A DNA stretch of 64,000 nucleotides. Origin: an uncultured delta proteobacterium. Lineage in GTDB: Bacteria; Myxococcota_A; Polyangia; Polyangiales; Polyangiaceae. Under the pieces are notes generated by a model, which was not told the DNA's origin, made no database searches, and saw nothing but the letters and a program-made list of their open reading frames with translations. Shown here in pieces: positions 1,539 through 47,424 of the stretch. The stretch's first letter is position 1, and every line of letters begins with the position of its first letter. Both the position numbers and the translations under genes were made by a program. The stretch is from the NCBI GenBank assembly GCA_963850305.1, contig CAWKKR010000007.1, positions 416,001 to 480,000 on the forward strand, written 5' to 3'.

Positions 1539-2237
1539 CTAGGGACCCGTGCCGGCCAGGAAGGTGTCCACGGCTCCGAACAGCACGGAAGGTTCATTGC
1601 CCGAGAGCGCGAGCACGATCTTCATCGTCTTCGTGTCGATGAGCAGGTTGAACGGAGCCGTGACCGTCGACGTGAAGAGCCCGAGCTGATGCTCGGCATC
1701 GAGAGCGAACGGAAAGTCGAGCGAGTACACTTCGGCCCAGGTCGCCGCGTCAGCCGGTGTCGCGGGTTTGGCCGCGGCGTCCTGGAAGATGGTGCCGAGA
1801 ATCCGGAACCCTTGGCCCTGCAGCGCCGCCAGGCGCGCCGTGAGCGAAGGCTGAGTCGCGCCGTCGCCACCGTACTCGGAGCGACAGGATACGCACCAGA
1901 CGGCACACGACTCGACGAGCAAGAGTCGGGCGTCCGGATCGGCGTGGAAGTTCGAGAGGCAAATCGGTTGGAAATGGGTGATGTCGTAGTTTGCTGCCTT
2001 CGGATCTTCCCAGCCCTGGAAGCAAAGGTCCCTCGTCACGTCTCCCACTTGAGTGCCATAGGGGCCCGCCGGATAAGTCGATGTGCCGCCGTCCGCGGGT
2101 CGTGCCCCCGCGCGAATGGCGTCGAGCAAGCCCTGCGGAACGGCCGCGTCGTTCGAGCCGCAGCCGACGGCCAGGAGGGCGAGTAGCAGAAGGGAACGGG
2201 CGGGGGTCACGTCGAGACCTCGCATGAATACGGCCAT
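1539..2237 (-). CDS. TlpA/ResA-like thioredoxin-fold (redoxin) lipoprotein
   Basis: Lipobox LAVGC; AVWCVSC (CxxC); later 'FPFALD' and 'APFNLLID' cis-Pro region. Start may be 5 codons later. Confidence 0.8.
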   Translation of the reverse strand: MAVFMRGLDVTPARSLLLLALLAVGCGSNDAAVPQGLLDAIRAGARPADGGTSTYPAGPYGTQVGDVTRDLCFQGWEDPKAANYDITHFQPICLSNFHADPDARLLLVESCAVWCVSCRSEYGGDGATQPSLTARLAALQGQGFRILGTIFQDAAAKPATPADAATWAEVYSLDFPFALDAEHQLGLFTSTVTAPFNLLIDTKTMKIVLALSGNEPSVLFGAVDTFLAGTGP

Positions 2238-2455
2238 CCCGCTGACTTGTTACAAAAATCGACGCCAGCCTGGCGCAGCCGCCGGAGTGAGTGCGAGCGT
2301 CCTGGAGTGGAGCCGAGCGTCCGTCTCGGTCGGAAGGAAAAATCGCCGGAGGATGATGAGAAATGTTGGGTCAGGCGTGTCACTTTATCCTTGGTCGCCG
2401 CGTAGGTGCTGAAAGAGCCGTCCCCGGCTCGCGCCGAGTGACGTTGGAATTTTTC

Positions 2456-3364
2456 ATGAAGCTTGCTTACTGGCTCGCCCTCGCTCCTCTCATCACCGGC
2501 GGCTGTAGCTCCGGCTCGGACACCCATGGGGACTCGAAGACCCTCGGCGCGGCGGACGCGGCGCCACCTGGATTCGGTCCGTCGGATGCGGACACGTCGG
2601 GGATCTTCGTGAAGACGGTGACAGGGCGATTTCTCGATCCGAACGGAAACCCGCCATCGTCGGCGGACTTCACCGTCTCCGTTTGTGGCCCCATCTGTTA
2701 CTTCGGCGATTCGGCGTCCGATGGCAGCTTCTCGACCCCGATCGGTGCGCGTATCGATCTGTCGCAATACTCGGCGCTTCCCCACGGGCGGCCCTACATC
2801 GCCGGATTCTATTTCGCGCTGCCGACGGACGCGCCTGGACCCGCGATCGATCTCGGCGATCTCCGGATCATCCCGATGCCCCAGGACGGCGCGCCCATCG
2901 ATCCGACGGGCGCGACGGCACAGACGCTGACCTCGGGTCCCGTGACGCTCGACATTGCCCAGGGCCTCGGCACCCACCTCGAGTTCGACGACCTCGCAGC
3001 AGCCGCCGCGGGCTCCGAGTTCCGCGCCGTCACCGTGGACCCGCACCTCATGGGCCGCTTCGTTCCACAGGACGCGGACGCGATCATCGCCCTCGGTCCT
3101 TTCGAGTCCTATGAGTTCGACGCGGGGAGCAACGTCGTTCCCACGCACCTGACGTTCGCCAACACGGCCGGCCTCGCTCCGGGCAAGGCCGTCGAGTTTC
3201 TCGCACTCGGAACCTATCTGCATCCCGACTGGATCCCACCGGCGGAGTTCACATCCGTCGCGACGGGTCGCGTTTCGGCGGACGGCGCTCGTATCGATCT
3301 CGATGCAGGGGAAGGGCTTCTCTATCTCACCTGGGTTGCCATCCGGGCAACGGGTGGCGAGTGA
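2456..3364 (+). CDS. Hypothetical lipoprotein (beta-rich)
   Basis: ATG at 2456 gives MKLAYWLALAPLITGGC (lipobox); stop overlaps the next start (GTGA). Confidence 0.7.
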   Translation: MKLAYWLALAPLITGGCSSGSDTHGDSKTLGAADAAPPGFGPSDADTSGIFVKTVTGRFLDPNGNPPSSADFTVSVCGPICYFGDSASDGSFSTPIGARIDLSQYSALPHGRPYIAGFYFALPTDAPGPAIDLGDLRIIPMPQDGAPIDPTGATAQTLTSGPVTLDIAQGLGTHLEFDDLAAAAAGSEFRAVTVDPHLMGRFVPQDADAIIALGPFESYEFDAGSNVVPTHLTFANTAGLAPGKAVEFLALGTYLHPDWIPPAEFTSVATGRVSADGARIDLDAGEGLLYLTWVAIRATGGE

Positions 3365-39888: not shown

Positions 39889-41863
39889 TCAGTCGTCGGC
39901 GGTCAGATACGTATAGCTACCGAGCGCTTGCTCGTAATGCCGGAGGAGAAGACGCATCTGTTCCAGCGTGATCTTGCCGCCGCCGAGGGCGGCTTCGGCC
40001 TGTTCGCGCACCGATTCCATCATGCCCTCGGGCGTGTGCGCGACCGAGCGCAGCACCTCGGACATGCTGTCTCCGCGAATGACGTGGGTCACCTTGTAGC
40101 CGCCGTCGCTCAGCCGGACGTGGACGGCGTTGGTGTCGCCGAAGAGATTATGAAGGTCGCCTAGGATCTCCTGATACGCGCCGTTCAGGAACATCGCGAG
40201 GAAATAGGAGTCGCCCTGGCTATAGGCGTGCACGTCGAGCGTGCTCTTCGTATCCTCGACGTCGATGAAGTGATCGATGACCCCGTCGCTGTCGCACGTC
40301 AGATCTGCGAGCGTCGCGCGCACGGTCGGCTCTTCGCCGAGCCGCTGGATCGGCATGATGGGGAAGAGCTGATCGATCGCCCATGAGTCCGGCGCGGACT
40401 GGAACACCGAGAAGTTGCAGTAGTAGATGGTGCCCATCGCGCGCTCGATGTCCTGGAGTTCTTCCGGGACGAACCTGAACCGGCGCACCGTGTCGCGGAT
40501 CTTCTCGCAGCAGTTCCAGTACAGGCGCTCCGCCTGAGCACGCTCGCGCAGCGTCAAGTATCCATACTTGAACAGGTTCTGCGCCTCTTCCTTCATCTGA
40601 CTCGCGTCGTGCCACGACTCCTGCACGTTCTTTGGGCGGATCCCCCGATACGTGTCGAACAGCTCGCGGAGCACGCGGTGCGCGTCCGACTTCGGCTCCA
40701 GCGGCTGACCGAAGTGGATCTCGTTGGCGCCGACCACGTCGAAGATGAGCACGGATTGATGCGCCACGACGGCGCGGCCGCTCTCGCTCACGATGGTCGG
40801 ATTCGGGACGTCGCGCTTGCCGCACGCACTCTGGATCGTCGAGACCACGTCCGCGGCGTACTCATGGAGCGTGTAGTTCCGCGACGCGTGGAAGTCCGTC
40901 TTCGAACCGTCGTAGTCGATGGCGAGTCCGCCGCCGACGTCGAGGTATCCCATCGCGCAGCCCATCTTGGCGAGCTCGACGTAGATGTTCGCGGCTTCCT
41001 GGATCGCGTTCTTGACCGGAATGATGCTCGAGAATCTGGCTCCCGATGTGAAAGTGAAGCAGCTTGAGGCAGTCGAGCATGTTCTTTTCGGACAGCCGAT
41101 CGACGAGCTCCACGATCTGCGCCGTCGTCAGTCCGAACTTCGCGCGATCCCCGGCGGACTCCTTCCACCTTCCCATGCCCTTGCTCGCGAGTTTCGCGCG
41201 GACACCCAGGATGGGCCGAATGCCGAGGCGCTCGCTCGCCTTCAACACGAGGTCGAACTCCTCGATGCGTTCGAGGACGACGATGACGGTGCGATCGAAG
41301 CGCTGCGCGATGAGCGCGGTCTCGATGTACGTCAGGTCCTTGTAGCCGTTGCAGATGACCAGCCCGGACGAGTCGCGCATGAACGCGAGTGCGATGAGGA
41401 GCTCCGGCTTCGATCCGACTTCGAGCCCGAAGCTCCAGGGCTTCCCGAACTCCACCACCTCTTCCACGATGTGGCGCTGCTGGTTGACTTTGACCGGATA
41501 GACGCCGCGGTAAACGCCCTGATACTCGTACTCCTCGATCGCCTGCACGAAGGCTTCGTTGATCGAGCGAATGCGGTGCTGGAGGATCTCCGAGAAGCGC
41601 ACCAGGATCGGGAGCTCGATGCCGCGTGCCTGTAGATCGTGCGCGAGATCGTAGAGGTCGATCGCGCGCTCGCAATCCGGATCGGGCGTGACTTCGACGT
41701 GGCCCTTCTCGTTGATCGAGAAGTAGGGCGCTCCCCATCCTCGAATCTGATAGAGGTCAGCGCTTTGTCCGACGTCCCACTCCTGCGCGCCGTTCGGCTT
41801 GAGACGCCGAACGTTCGGACGGGTGGGAGGCGTCGGACGAACCTGCGGGGTCGGTCCTGCCAT
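39889..41863 (-). CDS. speA: Biosynthetic arginine decarboxylase; 1-nt insertion at 41033-41034
   Basis: WGAPYF, YPVKVNQ (PLP Lys), GLEVGSKPEL, HFHIGSQI, then in the next frame SSIIPVKNAIQEA..LDVGGGL, ESGRA, DLTCDSDG, GAYQEILGDLHNLFG. Confidence 0.95.
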
Positions 41864-41930
41864 GCGAAGCTACGCCAAGCATTCGCAGAACCAGGCGGAA
41901 ACGCAAGAGGGGATCGTCATCTCCGGAACC

Positions 41931-42903
41931 TCATCCCCAGAACTTCACGGGCAGCGCGGCGCGCTTGTACAAGGACAGGACGTCCATGCTGACGGCCACG
42001 CTGATGTGGACGAGGAAGCCGGCGTAGATGCTCCGCGTCCGCATCGCGAGGGAGCCGAGCACGATGCCGGCGATGATCGCACCGTTCGCCTCGAAATAAG
42101 GCTTCCCGAAGTGGATCATGCAGTAGGGGAGGGCCATCGCGAAGATGGCGCCGGAGCCCATCGTCCGCCGGAGCGCGCCGACCATCCACCCTCTGAAAAA
42201 CAGCTCGAGCGAGAAGAACTGGACCCAGTAGATCGCCTCCCAGAGCAGGAAGTCGAGCCAGCTTCGCGAGGCGCTCTTGTAAAACGGATAGTAGGACCCG
42301 AAGTCGGGCTGCGTCGAGACGAGGAGCATCAGTGGCACGACGATGCCGAGGCACGCTCCAGTAAATCCAGATGTGGTCCAGGAACCCACGCCCCCGGAGC
42401 CCCATGTCGAGCAGGCGATCCTCGGGGAAGAGCAGCTTCCAGAGCGGCAACGGCACGAGGACGTAGCCAATGAAACGCGCCATCACCCACCAGCCGTAGC
42501 CGAGGAGCTCGTCGTACTTGGCGACCTTGAACCACGGGTGGAGGACCGCGAACTGCTGGAGCGGTTCGCGCAGCACCTCGTCGTAGAACGGCCTGGCGCC
42601 GTAGTACTCCTGCATCGTCAAGACCGCCGCGACGATGACGAAGCAGGCGGCGGGCCGGTAATCCATCTTGCCGGCCGCGGCGAGCTCGGCCCGGTAGCGC
42701 GCGGCATCCGCGTCGAGCTCTCGCCAAGTGTCGCGGAAAAACCACCAGATGGGCCACGCGACCGCCGCGAGGATCGGCAGGGGGAGCAGCACCTTGAGCG
42801 GCGCGTACGAGAGCAGCGCATCGATACGGCTGATTTCCGGGATCTGCCGGACCGGGAGATCGAGGGGCAGCGGGCCGAGGGCGGTGGCGAGCGGCGCGAA
42901 CAA
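41931..42903 (-). CDS. CPBP/CAAX-family intramembrane glutamic protease; 1-nt insertion at ~42360
   Basis: N-terminal TM region to HIWIY, then GACLGIVV.. in the 41931 frame; ELFFRG, MIHFGKP and VH motifs. Confidence 0.85.
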
Positions 42904-42904
42904 T

Positions 42905-44335
42905 TCAGTGGCCCCGCGCGATGCGGATCCCGTGTTCCAGCCGCGCGAGCGCCGTCTCGCGACCGAGCACGGCCATGACGTCGAAGAGCCCGGGGCTCGC
43001 TTTTCTCCCCGTGAGCGCGACGCGCACCGGCTGGGCGAGCTCCTTCATCTTGATCCCCGCGGTCTCGAGCCACGCCTTGGTGCGCGTCTCGAGCTCCTGT
43101 GCCGCGAAGGGTTCGACGGAAGCGCAGAGGTCCCGGAACGCCTCCAGGCGCTGCGCGGACTCCGGCGTCAGGAGCGGACGCGCCGCGTCGTCCAGGACCG
43201 GCGGCTCGCGGAAATAGAAGTCGAGCAGGTCCGCCGCTTCCACGAGCGTGTGGGCCCGGTCGCGAATGGTCGGGAGCGCCCGCGCGAGGCGAGCGCCGTC
43301 CACGTCCGTGATCCCGCGCGCGCCGAGGAACGGTGTCACGGAAGCGACATAATCGGCATCCGGAGTCAGCTCGGGGCGCTTCAAATGTTCGAACGCGACG
43401 TCGGCGAACTTCCTTTCGTCGAACTTACCGTCGCTCTTGCCGACCCGATCCCAGCTGAAGAGACGGACGAGTTCATCGCGGCTGAAGATTTCCTGGTCCC
43501 CGTAGGACCAGCCGAACCGGGCGAGGTAATTGAGGACGCCCATCGGCGTGAAGCCGCGTTCGCGGTAGTCCTGGACTCCGACCGACGCATTGCGCTTGCT
43601 GAGCTTGTCTCCCGTCGACGAGAGCATGAGCGGCAGATGGGCAAACTCGGGAGGCTCCCACCCGAGCGCGCGGTAGACGAGCACCTGCTGCGGCGTGTTG
43701 CCGACATGATCCCGACCGCGGGCCACCAGGGAAATGTCCATCATGTGGTCGTCGACGACCGCGGCGAAATTGTAGAGCGGAAACCCGTCCGAGCGCATCA
43801 GGACGAAGTCCGGTTGCTCCGAGTTCGGCGTGCTCACGACGCCGAACACCTTGTCCTTGAAGTCCGTCGAGCCGTCTCGAGGCGTCCGGAAGCGGATGAC
43901 GTGCGGCCTCGACGGATCCTTGCATTCCCGGAGCGGCCCCTTGAAGACGAACTCGCCCTTCGGGTTCTTCATCTTGAATTCGAGCCGCAGCCGCTCGAGC
44001 TCCTCCTTCGTCAAATCGCAGCGGTACGCCTTGCCGTCGCGGATGAGCAGCTCGCCGACCTCCCGGTAGAGCGCGCGCCGCTCGCTCTGGAAGTACGACC
44101 CCTTGGACCCACCCACCTCGGGCCCTTCGTCCCAGTCGAGCCCGAGCCAGCGCAGCGCGTCGAGGACCGCTCGTACGCTGTCGAGGCTCGACCGCTCCTG
44201 GTCCGTGTCCTCGATCCGGAGCACGAAAGTCCCGCCTTCTCTTCTCGCCCAGAGCCAGTTGAAGAGCGCCGTTCGAGCGCCGCCGATGTGCAGGTACCCG
44301 CTCGGTGACGGAGCGAAGCGGACGCGCAGAGCCAT
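42905..44335 (-). CDS. gltX: Glutamate--tRNA ligase
   Basis: RFAPSPSGYLHIGGAR (HIGH), LRIEDTD, KLSKR (KMSKS). Confidence 0.97.
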   Translation of the reverse strand: MALRVRFAPSPSGYLHIGGARTALFNWLWARREGGTFVLRIEDTDQERSSLDSVRAVLDALRWLGLDWDEGPEVGGSKGSYFQSERRALYREVGELLIRDGKAYRCDLTKEELERLRLEFKMKNPKGEFVFKGPLRECKDPSRPHVIRFRTPRDGSTDFKDKVFGVVSTPNSEQPDFVLMRSDGFPLYNFAAVVDDHMMDISLVARGRDHVGNTPQQVLVYRALGWEPPEFAHLPLMLSSTGDKLSKRNASVGVQDYRERGFTPMGVLNYLARFGWSYGDQEIFSRDELVRLFSWDRVGKSDGKFDERKFADVAFEHLKRPELTPDADYVASVTPFLGARGITDVDGARLARALPTIRDRAHTLVEAADLLDFYFREPPVLDDAARPLLTPESAQRLEAFRDLCASVEPFAAQELETRTKAWLETAGIKMKELAQPVRVALTGRKASPGLFDVMAVLGRETALARLEHGIRIARGH

Positions 44336-44410
44336 GGGGCGGCCGCGTACCATGCACGCGCGGAGGCGTCACGCGGCGACGAGAACGCGCCCCTCCCTCC
44401 GATGCTGAAC

Positions 44411-45046
44411 TCAGTTCAAATACACGACCGCACACCTGCAAAGGATGCTCGCCGGGCTGGTGGAGCATTGGGCAAATTGTCCGAACGCCTCTTCGCACGC
44501 GCCGCAGTTGGTGGCTGCCTCGACACACGAGCACTCGAACGGCACCTGCACGGTGCCGCCGTCGTTCACGAAGGAACCCTGCTTGCAGACGAAGGACTGC
44601 CCGGGCTCGCAATATTCGGCGGACGTTGGACGACTCGCGTCGCAAGAGCATCCGTACGAACCCTGCACGTCGTAGCCGGCCGGGGAGTAGCACGGGAGTT
44701 CCGCGCGAGAGCAGTCCCATTGAGCAGGAACGCAGGGGAGCAGGTCCGTTGGGGGGCCGGCGTCGATGGGATCCTCCAAGCCGCCGGTCGTCTGGATAGT
44801 CGACAGGTCGCCGTTGCCCCCATTGGACGGGACGAAGGCCTCCCCCCCAGAGCCGCCATTCGCGGTGAATACTGCGCTCCCCGCGACCCCGTCATGGCCT
44901 CCCGCGCCGAACGAATCGGGTGCACCCCCGGTATTCGATGCACTGCCGTCCCCATTCGCCTGCCCGACGATTCCGCCGCACCCGAGCGTCACGGTGCCGC
45001 CCATCAGGACGAGCGCGTGGAAAAGGGGATGACGACGTTCGCTCAT
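44411..45046 (-). CDS. Cys-rich lipoprotein, paralog 2 (211 aa)
   Basis: MSERRHPLFHALVLMGGTVTLGC lipobox; Gly-rich linker; 14-Cys domain; ATGA overlap with the upstream ferritin-like gene. Confidence 0.85.
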   Translation of the reverse strand: MSERRHPLFHALVLMGGTVTLGCGGIVGQANGDGSASNTGGAPDSFGAGGHDGVAGSAVFTANGGSGGEAFVPSNGGNGDLSTIQTTGGLEDPIDAGPPTDLLPCVPAQWDCSRAELPCYSPAGYDVQGSYGCSCDASRPTSAEYCEPGQSFVCKQGSFVNDGGTVQVPFECSCVEAATNCGACEEAFGQFAQCSTSPASILCRCAVVYLN

Positions 45047-45729
45047 GCTGCCTGACCGAGATTCAGATGTTCGAGGCCGGGGCGAATCACCGACCCGAGC
45101 GCGTCGTCGAGGGCGGCGCGGAGCAGACGCGGCGTGAAGTAGCCGAAGGGCACGAGTTCCTCTCGTTCCTCGGTGTTGTCCCTGCAGCAGATGTGCGGAA
45201 GGAGCGCGAGCAGTTGCGGTATCGACGCCCGGAGCTCCTCCTTCTTTCGTGCGTCGAGGGTCGAGAGGTGCGCCCAGCAGGCCCGGCCGTGCTGGAGCTC
45301 GTCCGCCAGATGGCGCTGGTTCAACTTCCGTAGCGGCTCGGCGTCGATCGCGGGTCGCGCGTGTCGGAGGATGAAGCAGCCGACCGTCTCCGTGAAGCAG
45401 CAGAGCGTGATCCGGAGCAGCCGGTTCTCGGCGTCGCTTGCGCCCGGCAGGACGAAGGGACGCCCCTCGCGGGGACGGATCTCGCCGCAAGCATGACCGA
45501 ATCTTTCGGCCCAATCGCGACACCACAGCGCATGCCGATACTCATCCGCCACCGCGCGTTCGCCGAGCGCGATCACGGGCTCAGGCGACCCCTCCGCGCG
45601 AAGGTCCCCGAGAACGTGCTGCCAGCCGACCCATGAGGTCATTTCAGCCGCTGCGCGCTGCCACCAGTACGCGGCCACGAGGACTCGGCCTTCAGGGTCC
45701 AGCGAGTCCACCCCCTTGCCATCCTTCAT
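45043..45729 (-). CDS. Ferritin-like diiron-carboxylate protein (228 aa)
   Basis: RAAAE ... ADEYRH ... FTET ... ADELQH: the E, ExxH, E, ExxH ligand pattern of four-helix diiron proteins; no signal peptide. Confidence 0.85.
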   Translation of the reverse strand: MKDGKGVDSLDPEGRVLVAAYWWQRAAAEMTSWVGWQHVLGDLRAEGSPEPVIALGERAVADEYRHALWCRDWAERFGHACGEIRPREGRPFVLPGASDAENRLLRITLCCFTETVGCFILRHARPAIDAEPLRKLNQRHLADELQHGRACWAHLSTLDARKKEELRASIPQLLALLPHICCRDNTEEREELVPFGYFTPRLLRAALDDALGSVIRPGLEHLNLGQAA

Positions 45730-45793
45730 GCGCTTCAGAGGATCCGTCCGGCGTGCCCGAAAAGCAAGCGTGCCTTCCGGATCGATGCCGAAC

Positions 45794-46420
45794 TCAGTGC
45801 AACAAGGAGATGTACACGCACCCACAAAGGATGCTCGTGGAGCTCGTGGAGCAACTGTAAGGTCGACAGACGCTGCAATCGGCGGGTCCTGCGACACACG
45901 AGCACTGGAACGGTATCTGCACGGTAATGCCGTCGCTCTCGAAGGCGCCCTGTTCGCAGACGAAGGACTTACCAGGTGGGCAATCGTCCGGAGAGCTTGG
46001 ACGTTCCGCATCGCAAACGCATCCGTACGCGCCCTGCACCAGGTAGCCAGCGGAGTAGTCGCACGCGAGCTGCGTCCTCGCACAGTCCCATTGCGCTGGA
46101 ACGCAGGGGAGCAGTTCAACTGGCGCGCCGCCGCCGTCGAGCAGGGCTGGCCCCTTCCCACCGGTTCCCGGCAGAGTCGACAGCCCGCCGCTGCCTCCCG
46201 CGAGGAGAGCCGGCTCGCCCCCGGCGCCGCCAGCTCCCGTGAATGCGGGACTGCCGCCGCTCCCGGCGCCGCCGCCGTTGGCGAATGAATCCGCTGCGCC
46301 CCCCGTGTCCGCCGCACTGCCGTCGCCGCTCGCCTGTCCGACGATTCCGCCGCACCCGAGCGCCACGGTGCCTCCCATCAAGACGAGCGCGTGAAAAAAG
46401 GGATGACGGGGTTCGTTCAT
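45794..46420 (-). CDS. Cys-rich lipoprotein, paralog 1 (208 aa)
   Basis: MNEPRHPFFHALVLMGGTVALGC; the same 14 Cys positions as 44411-45046. Confidence 0.85.
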   Translation of the reverse strand: MNEPRHPFFHALVLMGGTVALGCGGIVGQASGDGSAADTGGAADSFANGGGAGSGGSPAFTGAGGAGGEPALLAGGSGGLSTLPGTGGKGPALLDGGGAPVELLPCVPAQWDCARTQLACDYSAGYLVQGAYGCVCDAERPSSPDDCPPGKSFVCEQGAFESDGITVQIPFQCSCVAGPADCSVCRPYSCSTSSTSILCGCVYISLLH

Positions 46421-46497: not shown

Positions 46498-47424
46498 TCA
46501 GCCGTTCCCGGGCACGACGCGCAGGGTCATGGCGTCGAGGCGCTGCCCGCCGACGGTGCCGGCGCCGAAGTCCAGGGTCCGGATGGGGAAGGGGAACGTG
46601 ATGCCTTCGCGGTCGAAGGCCTTCTTGATCGCGATCATCGCCTCCGAGCGTGCCGCGAGATACGCGGGCTGAGTCGAGTCCATCAGCCAGATGCGCAAGT
46701 CGAAGTTGATCGAGCTGTCGCCGAACGAGGCGAAGAACAGCTCGGGTTCGCGCCCCGGGTCCCGCTTGGGCACGTCGCGAACGGCGGCGAGCACGGTGCT
46801 TCGCACCTTTTCCATGTCGTCCGCGTAGCTCGCACCCATCGAGAGATCCATCCGTCGATGGGCGGTGCGCGTATAGTTGATGATGGGATTCTGGAACACC
46901 GCCTTGTTGGGCACCAGGATGCTGAGCCCGTCGAGCGTTTCGACCTCGGTTGCGCGGAGCTCGATGCGGATCACCCGGCATTTCTTGTCCGCTATCTCCA
47001 CGAGGTCGCCGACCTCGAAGGGCCGGTAGAGCGCCATGATGAACCCGGACATGAAGTTCGCTGCGATATCCTGGAACGCGAAGCCGAGCGCCAAACCGAG
47101 GACGCCCACGCCGGCCAGGACGGAGGTGACCGTCTTGTCGAGGTGTAATAGCCCCAGCGCCCACAGCCCCGTCACCGCGAGGAGGCCGATCCGGCCCAGC
47201 GAGCCGAGTAACCTACTGATCGGTTCGTTGCCGGTCACGCGCTTGAGCGCGGACTCGACGACACGCTGAGCCCAGCGAGAAATGACCAGTCCAATTGCCA
47301 GGATCAGCCCCGCCAGGACGAGGTTCGGCAGCATGACGACTAAGTCCCGAAGCCAGGTCTCGAGCTTCTGGAACAGTTGTTCTGCGAGAGAGGTGATCTC
47401 CGTAACGTGCAGCTTTGCCATCAT
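46498..47424 (-). CDS. mscS: Small-conductance mechanosensitive channel
   Basis: LAGVGVLGLALGFAFQDIAANFMSG, RPFEVGD, VPN, FGDSSINF, GITFPFP. Confidence 0.95.
   Translation of the reverse strand: MMAKLHVTEITSLAEQLFQKLETWLRDLVVMLPNLVLAGLILAIGLVISRWAQRVVESALKRVTGNEPISRLLGSLGRIGLLAVTGLWALGLLHLDKTVTSVLAGVGVLGLALGFAFQDIAANFMSGFIMALYRPFEVGDLVEIADKKCRVIRIELRATEVETLDGLSILVPNKAVFQNPIINYTRTAHRRMDLSMGASYADDMEKVRSTVLAAVRDVPKRDPGREPELFFASFGDSSINFDLRIWLMDSTQPAYLAARSEAMIAIKKAFDREGITFPFPIRTLDFGAGTVGGQRLDAMTLRVVPGNG

Follow-up and report, generated by a model that had tools for sequence, protein, structure and literature searches.

Conserved enzyme-lipoprotein cassette

The locus described here raises the question of why a gene for a diiron-oxygenase-like enzyme should overlap a gene for a cysteine-rich lipoprotein, and whether the enzyme acts on its neighbor. 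It occupies positions 44411-46420 of a 64,000-nucleotide (nt) stretch of contig CAWKKR010000007.1 from a soil myxobacterium, referred to throughout as the window, and is a conserved, unnamed cassette. Reading of the open reading frames (ORFs) gives three intact minus-strand genes in the order lipoA, ferritin-like enzyme and lipoB. Three alignments are used: A1 (31 enzyme relatives), A2 (20 members of the lipoprotein family) and A3 (the Cys domain), together with AlphaFold2 (AF2) models. The features are as follows.

45794..46420, minus strand: lipoA, the upstream paralog, a predicted lipoprotein of 208 amino acids (aa) with leader and lipobox, Gly/Ser linker and 14-Cys C-terminal domain (ORF and start; homology to lipoB; match to the Cys-domain profile)
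46346..46420, minus strand: lipoA leader, residues 1-25 (MNEPRHPFFHALVLMGGTVALGCGG), putative signal peptide with lipobox Cys23 followed by GG (A2; leader statistics)
45797..46114, minus strand: lipoA 14-Cys domain, residues 103-208, with the tail ILCGCVYISLLH (alignments; match to the Cys-domain profile)
45043..45729, minus strand: ferritin-like diiron-carboxylate protein, 228 aa, without a signal peptide (invariant ligands; AF2 model; fold matches)
45043..45046, minus strand: ATGA overlap of the enzyme stop TGA and the lipoB start ATG, predicted translational coupling (coordinates; recurrence in relatives)
44411..45046, minus strand: lipoB, a predicted lipoprotein of 211 aa with lipoA-like architecture, the downstream partner kept across the subfamily (ORF; homology; A2)
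44972..45046, minus strand: lipoB leader, residues 1-25 (MSERRHPLFHALVLMGGTVTLGCGG) (A2; leader statistics)
44414..44743, minus strand: lipoB 14-Cys domain, residues 102-211, with the tail ILCRCAVVYLN (AF2 model; A3)

The initial annotation had described a signal-less 228-aa protein coupled by ATGA to a lipoprotein and preceded by a paralog of that lipoprotein, and this layout was borne out, with the overlap at 45046-45043, a 64-nt spacer between the lipoA stop and the enzyme start, and 58% identity between lipoA and lipoB (BLASTP E 6e-79). It had also named unrelated neighbors of the enzyme's homologs as the result that would tell against a functional pair. To assess this we compared 20 related loci, drawn from metagenome-assembled genomes (MAGs) of Polyangiaceae and other Myxococcota, two of the records being titled Pseudomonadota. 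By tblastn, a lipoprotein homolog (27-40% identity over most of its length) starts directly 3' of the enzyme gene in 19 of the 20, and lipoproteins with the same leader stand beside further enzyme clades. The lipoprotein start and the enzyme stop overlap by 4 nt (ATGA or GTGA) in 15 of these 19 loci and are separated by a gap of 2 nt in three and of 14 nt in one. The pairing of enzyme and lipoprotein is far beyond chance.

Gene order and copy number vary around this core. Among the close loci only the window carries an upstream paralog, and one other locus (L017) has a second lipoprotein copy downstream. The window's own genome (6.26 Mb, 11 contigs) holds one other member of the enzyme family, at C1:686242-686991, and a homologous lipoprotein gene (C1:686995-687579) lies directly upstream of it; because the window has lipoproteins on both sides of its enzyme, it combines both gene orders. 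One apparent enzyme-lipoprotein fusion (P0273, 414 aa) was rejected as a frameshift read-through, the enzyme part leaving the family frame near residue 185 before the lipoprotein follows.

To determine whether further genes belong to the cassette, we took 132 candidate ORFs flanking it in 14 loci, of which 78 were run through Pfam; ORFs of the enzyme and the lipoproteins were excluded, as were evident shadows on the opposite strand. No conserved third gene emerged among the ORFs run, and the flanking genes are mutually unrelated, encoding pectate lyase, LuxR, GNAT, DUF885, SET, NUDIX, methyltransferase, peroxiredoxin, rpoC and other products. In 3 of the 20 loci (L005:151-1005, L006:1344-2297 and L022:2759-3958) a gene with an HTTM domain (PF05090, a vitamin-K-carboxylase-like membrane domain) ends immediately ahead of the enzyme gene; none is present in the window's own genome, and such a gene may be a third component that only some cassettes have. 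What is conserved as a unit is the enzyme together with its lipoprotein or lipoproteins.

Beyond these close relatives, profile A1 detects the enzyme (E 1e-20 or better) in 38 of 401 Myxococcota genomes, the window's own included, with up to five copies per genome, and in 9 of the 29 genomes of the window's taxonomic family. More distant loci were examined in two batches, 29 loci of other genomes with 1.5-kb flanks and 20 further matches. In 19 of the first 29, a small same-strand ORF with the leader pattern has its end 0-330 nt upstream of the enzyme gene; inspection by eye of the other ten added four clear leader lipoproteins (L034, L035, L040, L045) and one probable one (L031). The second batch yielded a leader lipoprotein by pattern in five loci and by eye in four, another lipoprotein-like neighbor in five and none visible in six. 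In these distant upstream ORFs a basic residue comes first, followed by [LMFY][FY]x[ASV][LI]V and, after that, by the lipobox Cys; the search pattern was [LMFY][FY]x[ASV][LI]V..G...C. Since this pattern has 18 six-frame matches in the whole 6.26-Mb genome, three of them the enzyme-adjacent lipoproteins, about 0.002 chance matches are expected per 1.5 kb.

The tails behind these leaders are unrelated to the 14-Cys domain and to one another. By eye they fall into classes with CCW..PCC, GWPTTK, short C..CIL ends or Trp-terminal ends, some of the tails having a single Cys. A maximum-likelihood tree of 50 enzyme sequences (truncated L050, window duplicates and the second batch left out; tail classes assigned by eye) places the WPTTK class and the CIL class each on one branch (100/98) and the 14-Cys class in one branch (94/96) that includes L021. 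Enzymes of several clades occur within genomes of one taxonomic family, and for this reason the clades are read as paralogous lines, each tied to one kind of tail.

Several individual loci are of interest in their own right. At L024:908-1492, two tandem small leader-lipoprotein genes (CCWLM..HPCC tails) precede one enzyme gene, resembling the two copies of the window, and some other distant cassettes are alike in this. At L027 a lipoprotein with multicopper-oxidase-like motifs (HCHVPSHMEGGM) is encoded downstream of the enzyme gene, at about 2200-3100. Outside the window, the plus strand of C4:479704-481439 in the same genome carries an 18-Cys lipoprotein gene followed by an ORF (480363-481439) that fuses a lipoprotein signal, a Cys-rich stretch and a ferritin-like region with ExxH motifs; judged from its sequence, this ferritin-like domain itself appears to be exported.

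Around the cassette, an MscS-type gene (46498-47424) lies upstream and is followed by a terminator-like hairpin on the minus strand (46504-46492; pattern match only), and pattern matching alone found no such hairpin between lipoB and gltX (42905-44353). The G+C content of the window is 63-70%, and long spurious ORFs are abundant on that account. Two minus-strand genes nearby are disrupted. A speA-like biosynthetic arginine decarboxylase gene (39889-41863) is frameshifted into an N-part (41863..~41000) and a C-part (40965..39889), by assembly error or as a pseudogene, and a CPBP/Abi-type intramembrane protease gene (41917-42903; LELFFRG motif), directly 3' of gltX, lies in two frames with the break near 42400. 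Because of these frameshifts, single-base indel errors in the assembly are possible; lipoA, the enzyme gene and lipoB are nonetheless full length compared with their relatives. No RNA data covering the cassette were found, and three soil-metagenome DNA runs from one study contain small shares of its words.

Ferritin-like protein and its lipoprotein partners

The full E/ExxH/E/ExxH ligand set ascribed to the enzyme in the initial annotation is present in an intact ORF, and E29, E63-x-x-H66, E114 and E144-x-x-H147 are invariant across A1, including the 39%-identical paralog from the same genome. Its N-terminus has no hydrophobic stretch, and we take the protein to be cytoplasmic for that reason. 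Searching a large protein collection gave 248 relatives with E of 0.001 or below. Those listed, 120 in number, are 58-84% identical, the named ones are all hypothetical proteins from Polyangiaceae MAGs, and three have a precomputed PF11583 (AurF) match. Six Cys are also kept in this subfamily (C70 and C111 invariant in A1; C110, C118, C181 and C182 at 90% or more), and a CC pair precedes ligand E114 by three residues. Of these six, the paralog from the same genome retains C70 and C111 alone.

Known families gave little purchase on any of the three cassette proteins. Pfam and NCBIfam returned no match apart from a chance NCBIfam row, and a PDB profile search with A1 produced chance rows only (E 0.5 or worse). 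PF11583 (AurF/CmlI) stayed below its gathering score: the window enzyme has no match even at E 1, and 11 of the 31 A1 sequences match weakly at E 0.01 or better, the best at 7.5e-4. A protein-atlas search with the enzyme supplied leads only, namely unnamed Myxococcota clusters and ferritin-like families.

Structure prediction was more informative. The AF2 model built from A1 is all-helical, with seven helices and a mean predicted local distance difference test score (pLDDT) of 95.4. VIA-align places SSO1313 first (4mud_A, Z 17.1, root-mean-square deviation 2.9 over 205 residues), followed by PaaC (3pvr_B, Z 16.0), aldehyde-deformylating oxygenases (ADO; 5ux2_B, Z 14.9), toluene/methane monooxygenase hydroxylases (Z 13.5-13.8) and the R2 subunit of ribonucleotide reductase (Z about 13), with CmlI (Z 11.5) and AurF (2jcd, Z 11.4) below PaaA/C and ADO. 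Foldseek ranks the same entries at the top, with E 6e-3 and weaker. In all, 84 chains reach Z 8 or more, and helical bundles score high easily, yet the top matches span the whole protein and share its ligand pattern. For Dps and bacterioferritin chains the alignment extends over no more than about 135-150 residues (Z 9-11); storage ferritins have a bundle of about 140-180 residues and assemble into 12- or 24-mer shells. The model thus suggests a ferritin-like diiron-carboxylate fold that looks like the oxygenase-type rather than the storage-ferritin branch, in keeping with the earlier ferritin-like diiron assignment. Given the invariant ligands, the confident model and the oxygenase-type best matches, the protein looks catalytic, and it would bind two metal ions and activate O2.

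Both lipoproteins begin with M-x-E-x-RHP-x-FHALVLMGGTV-x-LGCGG. The initial annotation had singled out this His-containing N-terminus as unusual; the motif is indeed present in both, but it reads as a lipoprotein signal peptide with a lipobox, and what is unusual is the strength of its conservation. By the general rule for signal peptidase II (SPII) signals, the sequence can be divided as MSERRHP / LFHALVLMGGTVTL / G-C, giving a basic n-region, a hydrophobic h-region and a lipobox. The A2 consensus is ..H[PR][LF]F[RH]A[LM]V[LV]MGGxLA[LV][GS]-C-G-G, in which C23, G24 and G25 are invariant and F9, V13, M15, G16 and A20 are kept at 90% or more. Among the 89 of 152 sequences matching a pattern of fixed length, mean pairwise identity is 0.637 over 21 leader positions, against 0.351 for the 123 columns of the domain (0.259 once the Cys columns are removed). 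This contrast is somewhat inflated because the selecting pattern itself fixes some leader positions. The leader pattern fits 87 of 118 full-length-looking sequences; many of the misfits, viewed by eye, start at an internal Met of the leader, and several others are without the motif. Export of lipoB by the twin-arginine (Tat) route, for which an RR is present, was set aside, the twin arginine being conserved neither in lipoA nor in the family consensus.

The remaining elements of the lipoproteins also agree with the first description of 14 Cys, a drifting Gly linker and the two hydrophobic tails. Each protein has 15 Cys, comprising the lipobox Cys and 14 in the C-terminal domain, and the Gly/Ser linker differs in length and sequence between lipoA and lipoB and cannot be aligned in A2. 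Across A2 and A3 the domain keeps 13 invariant Cys together with conserved Q-W, R-P and D residues. Queried with the Cys domain, a word-based search recovered three relatives only, and an exhaustive profile search was needed to reveal the family: against 1.84 billion representative proteins, A3 finds 224 with E of 0.001 or below and 151 with E of 1e-10 or below, and almost all are 180-250 aa long with the domain reaching the last residue. In the 150 of the 224 matches that were listed, the typical ending is [IV]-L-C-G-C-A-x-x-x-L-[KR]: 131 of them have Cys at -9 and 127 have it at -7, position -2 is Leu in 135, and position -1 is Lys or Arg in 125; the two lipoproteins of the window end in N and H rather than K/R. 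One larger protein, P0237 (704 aa), joins a C-terminal 14-Cys domain to a leader-like N-terminus through a large middle part and is without the LCGCAxxxL[KR] ending.

In the AF2 model from A2, residues 100-210 have pLDDT 82-95 and the remainder is below 50. This domain has no solved fold among the structures compared, the best VIA-align Z among 48,161 chains being 2.3 and the best Foldseek E being 1, and a protein-atlas search with it gave no usable match.

Candidate roles of the pairing

Gene order, leader conservation and published analogy lead us to infer that the enzyme may modify or process its lipoprotein. The reading we favor, tentatively, is a leader-guided, O2-dependent modification of the lipoprotein precursor in the cytoplasm, before Sec export and lipidation; it is drawn by analogy and from gene order and leader conservation. 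The enzyme would recognize the leader on the nascent or unfolded precursor, so that one segment would double as a leader in the style of RiPPs (peptides made by the ribosome and modified after translation) and as a Sec/Lsp signal, and would use O2 at its dimetal site to modify the precursor's tail. Candidate sites in this subfamily are the nearly invariant C-terminal LCGCAxxxL[K/R], the QW of CxxAQWDC next to the first Cys pair, and CxCDxxRP, and the chemistry could be hydroxylation, a cross-link or other. The modified precursor would then pass through Sec export, lipidation by Lgt, cleavage by Lsp at Cys23 and disulfide folding. The start/stop overlap would ensure fresh enzyme beside every precursor made, which would matter if export competes with modification.

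A broader form of this proposal we hold more loosely still. Ferritin-fold diiron proteins may constitute a new superfamily of leader-guided modifying enzymes, for which the signal peptide would serve as leader as well as export and lipidation signal. Many classes of surface lipoproteins in myxobacteria, the 14-Cys domain without a solved fold among them, would receive an O2-dependent change from these enzymes, possibly at the C-terminal Cys motif or at a Cys/Trp site.

Several observations weigh against leader-guided modification. At one of the close loci (L021) the partner homolog has been lost and the lipoprotein-like ORF that lies about 180 nt downstream of the enzyme gene is unrelated to it, and 9 or 10 of the 49 more distant loci have no adjacent lipoprotein. 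The clustering of enzymes with tail classes is support for specificity and not proof of it, because a co-inherited gene pair would give the same picture. The 110-residue mature domain, with its confident and compact predicted fold, fits an ordinary disulfide-rich periplasmic protein needing no modification, and an enzyme-first order with near-stoichiometric coupling is more usual for complexes than for an enzyme and its substrate. The flanking ORFs of the 14 loci run through Pfam include no conserved RiPP recognition element-like partner, reductase or dedicated transporter. Co-folding of the A1 enzyme with the full-length A2 lipoprotein, run three times without controls, scored 0.35, 0.05 and 0.01, which counts neither for nor against the reading.

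Some of these points would suit a non-catalytic leader partner, in which the ferritin-like protein holds the signal peptide, or the peptide released by Lsp, as a holdase, an export gate or an O2/iron-sensing regulator of lipoprotein export. Tight, near-stoichiometric coupling is expected of such a partner, the leader is the most conserved element and is common to unrelated tails, and accessory enzymes are not conserved nearby. A full diiron ligand set that stays invariant over deep divergence is instead expected for catalysis or metal sensing and not for a plain chaperone, and the enzyme clades track the tail classes, not the leader alone; we regard this explanation as unlikely.

We give similarly little credence to a linked pair without contact, in which the Cys-rich lipoprotein buffers or senses metal or thiol-redox stress in the periplasm and the cytoplasmic diiron protein deals with the same stress inside the cell, as a ferroxidase or by handling peroxide or metal. 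The 14 conserved Cys of the exported domain and the ferritin-like fold of its partner would fit such a division of labor, and the fusion ORF at C4:480363-481439 links both themes outside the cytoplasm. This explanation leaves unaccounted for the stronger conservation of the signal peptide relative to the mature domain and the fact that tails with one to four Cys or other motifs keep both leader and neighbor, and a 228-aa protein of seven helices whose best matches are of the PaaA/ADO type looks more like an oxygenase than a storage ferritin.

Another explanation is an enzyme whose substrate is a small molecule (a lipid, an acyl chain or an aromatic compound), in the manner of ADO, the acyl-ACP desaturases, PaaA and AurF, with the lipoprotein as periplasmic receptor, carrier or user of the product. 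The substrates of all characterized structural neighbors are small molecules or are bound to a carrier, and the weak AurF (PF11583) matches in A1 point the same way. No further pathway genes are conserved nearby, and the conserved leader and the tail-specific enzyme clades would go unexplained, making this quite improbable in our view. A pair of the SitA/SitI toxin-immunity kind was rejected, since here the cytoplasmic partner is the better conserved and has a metal site, and the 14-Cys domain is unsuited to a cytoplasmic target. That the pairing is mere chance or an annotation artefact, with unrelated neighbors or spurious ORFs in GC-rich DNA, might be suspected from the 66% G+C and long spurious ORFs of the window and its two frameshift-split genes, but is refuted by adjacency in 19 of 20 loci and a recurrent start/stop overlap, with 248 enzyme and 224 Cys-domain relatives, a conserved architecture and confident AF2 models for both families, leaving it a negligible probability.

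If leader-guided modification holds true, the short list of enzyme folds known to act on peptides and proteins of ribosomal origin would gain the ferritin-like diiron fold, the signal peptide would also serve as a recognition leader, and many diverse myxobacterial surface lipoproteins would carry a hidden modification. Even if it fails, two unnamed families are defined, one enzyme-like and the other a 14-Cys domain with no relative among solved structures, and their linkage is among the tightest seen in genomes.

Comparison with known systems

The enzyme resembles the ferritin-like oxygenases SSO1313, PaaA/PaaC, ADO and AurF/CmlI in its predicted fold and its E/ExxH/E/ExxH pattern, and differs from them in sharing only 10-18% identity, with no Pfam or NCBIfam model at threshold and no sequence relative in the PDB. 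To our knowledge, no oxygenase of these types acts on a ribosomal protein. Signal-peptide motifs conserved beyond the needs of export are familiar from YSIRK-G/S and ESPR, which serve sorting and are not tied to a dedicated gene for a cytoplasmic metalloprotein; the leader of the cassette is like them in its surplus conservation and unlike them in being tied to such a gene.

At the other end of the lipoproteins, the tail recalls the MYXO-CTERM/myxosortase tag, which, in the portion of PMC11980579 available, is a C-terminal invariant Cys followed by hydrophobic and basic residues on Myxococcota surface proteins. The cassette likewise has a C-terminal Cys motif with hydrophobic and then basic residues, and the CPBP-type protease gene 1.5 kb away belongs to the protease family of myxosortase; no link between that gene and the cassette is shown. 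Unlike the tag, in which a transmembrane helix and an Arg-rich end follow the Cys motif, the tail of the cassette has only 4-5 hydrophobic residues and one basic residue, which is too short for a membrane helix, and it is modeled as a strand of the domain. The MYXO-CTERM NCBIfam model has no match among the cassette proteins at E 1 or better, one chance row aside.

The bufferins and oxazolins are Cys peptides that carry Sec or SPII signals and are modified by MNIO enzymes. They offer a parallel in that, under leader-guided modification, an exported Cys product would be oxidized by an iron enzyme in the cytoplasm before export. As far as the accessible part of PMC13056109 describes them, they are short metal-binding peptides, unlike the 110-residue 14-Cys domain, and the cassette differs further in its enzyme superfamily and in having no BufC/MbnC-type partner.

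The closest parallel is to the DAG-RiPPs. According to the available portion of PMC13056109 (PNAS 2026), signal-less MNIO enzymes modify, ahead of lipidation, the C-terminal CPxCGxG of precursors bearing SPII signals, some of them proteins of more than 30 kDa. The genome mining in that paper was confined to precursors associated with MNIO enzymes, and the words 'ferritin' and 'diiron' do not occur in the main text as available. The initial annotation had called the pairing undescribed, and full-text searching outside subscription-only papers and supplements turned up no account that pairs a ferritin-like enzyme with lipoproteins carrying such a leader; the general logic of a cytoplasmic iron oxidase acting on precursors with lipoprotein signals is in print there for another enzyme family (PMC13056109, as far as accessible).

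The cassette and the ChrH/DybH/MelH-type MNIO systems share a signal-less cytoplasmic gene of the non-heme iron oxidase type beside a precursor with an SPII signal and a lipobox Cys, and a conserved Cys motif at the very C-terminus; DAG-RiPP substrates can be whole proteins, and examples of these systems occur in Myxococcota (PMC13056109, available portion). They differ in the enzyme, which in the cassette is predicted to be a ferritin-like four-helix-bundle diiron fold and not the MNIO/DUF692 TIM barrel, with no DUF692 Pfam match, and in the C-terminal motif, LCGCAxxxL[K/R] as opposed to CPxCGxG. They differ also in the signal peptide, for which guiding goes unmentioned in the accessible part of that paper and which is the most conserved element of the cassette's lipoproteins. 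By this analogy, the modification we favor would follow DAG-RiPP logic, carried out by a different enzyme superfamily.

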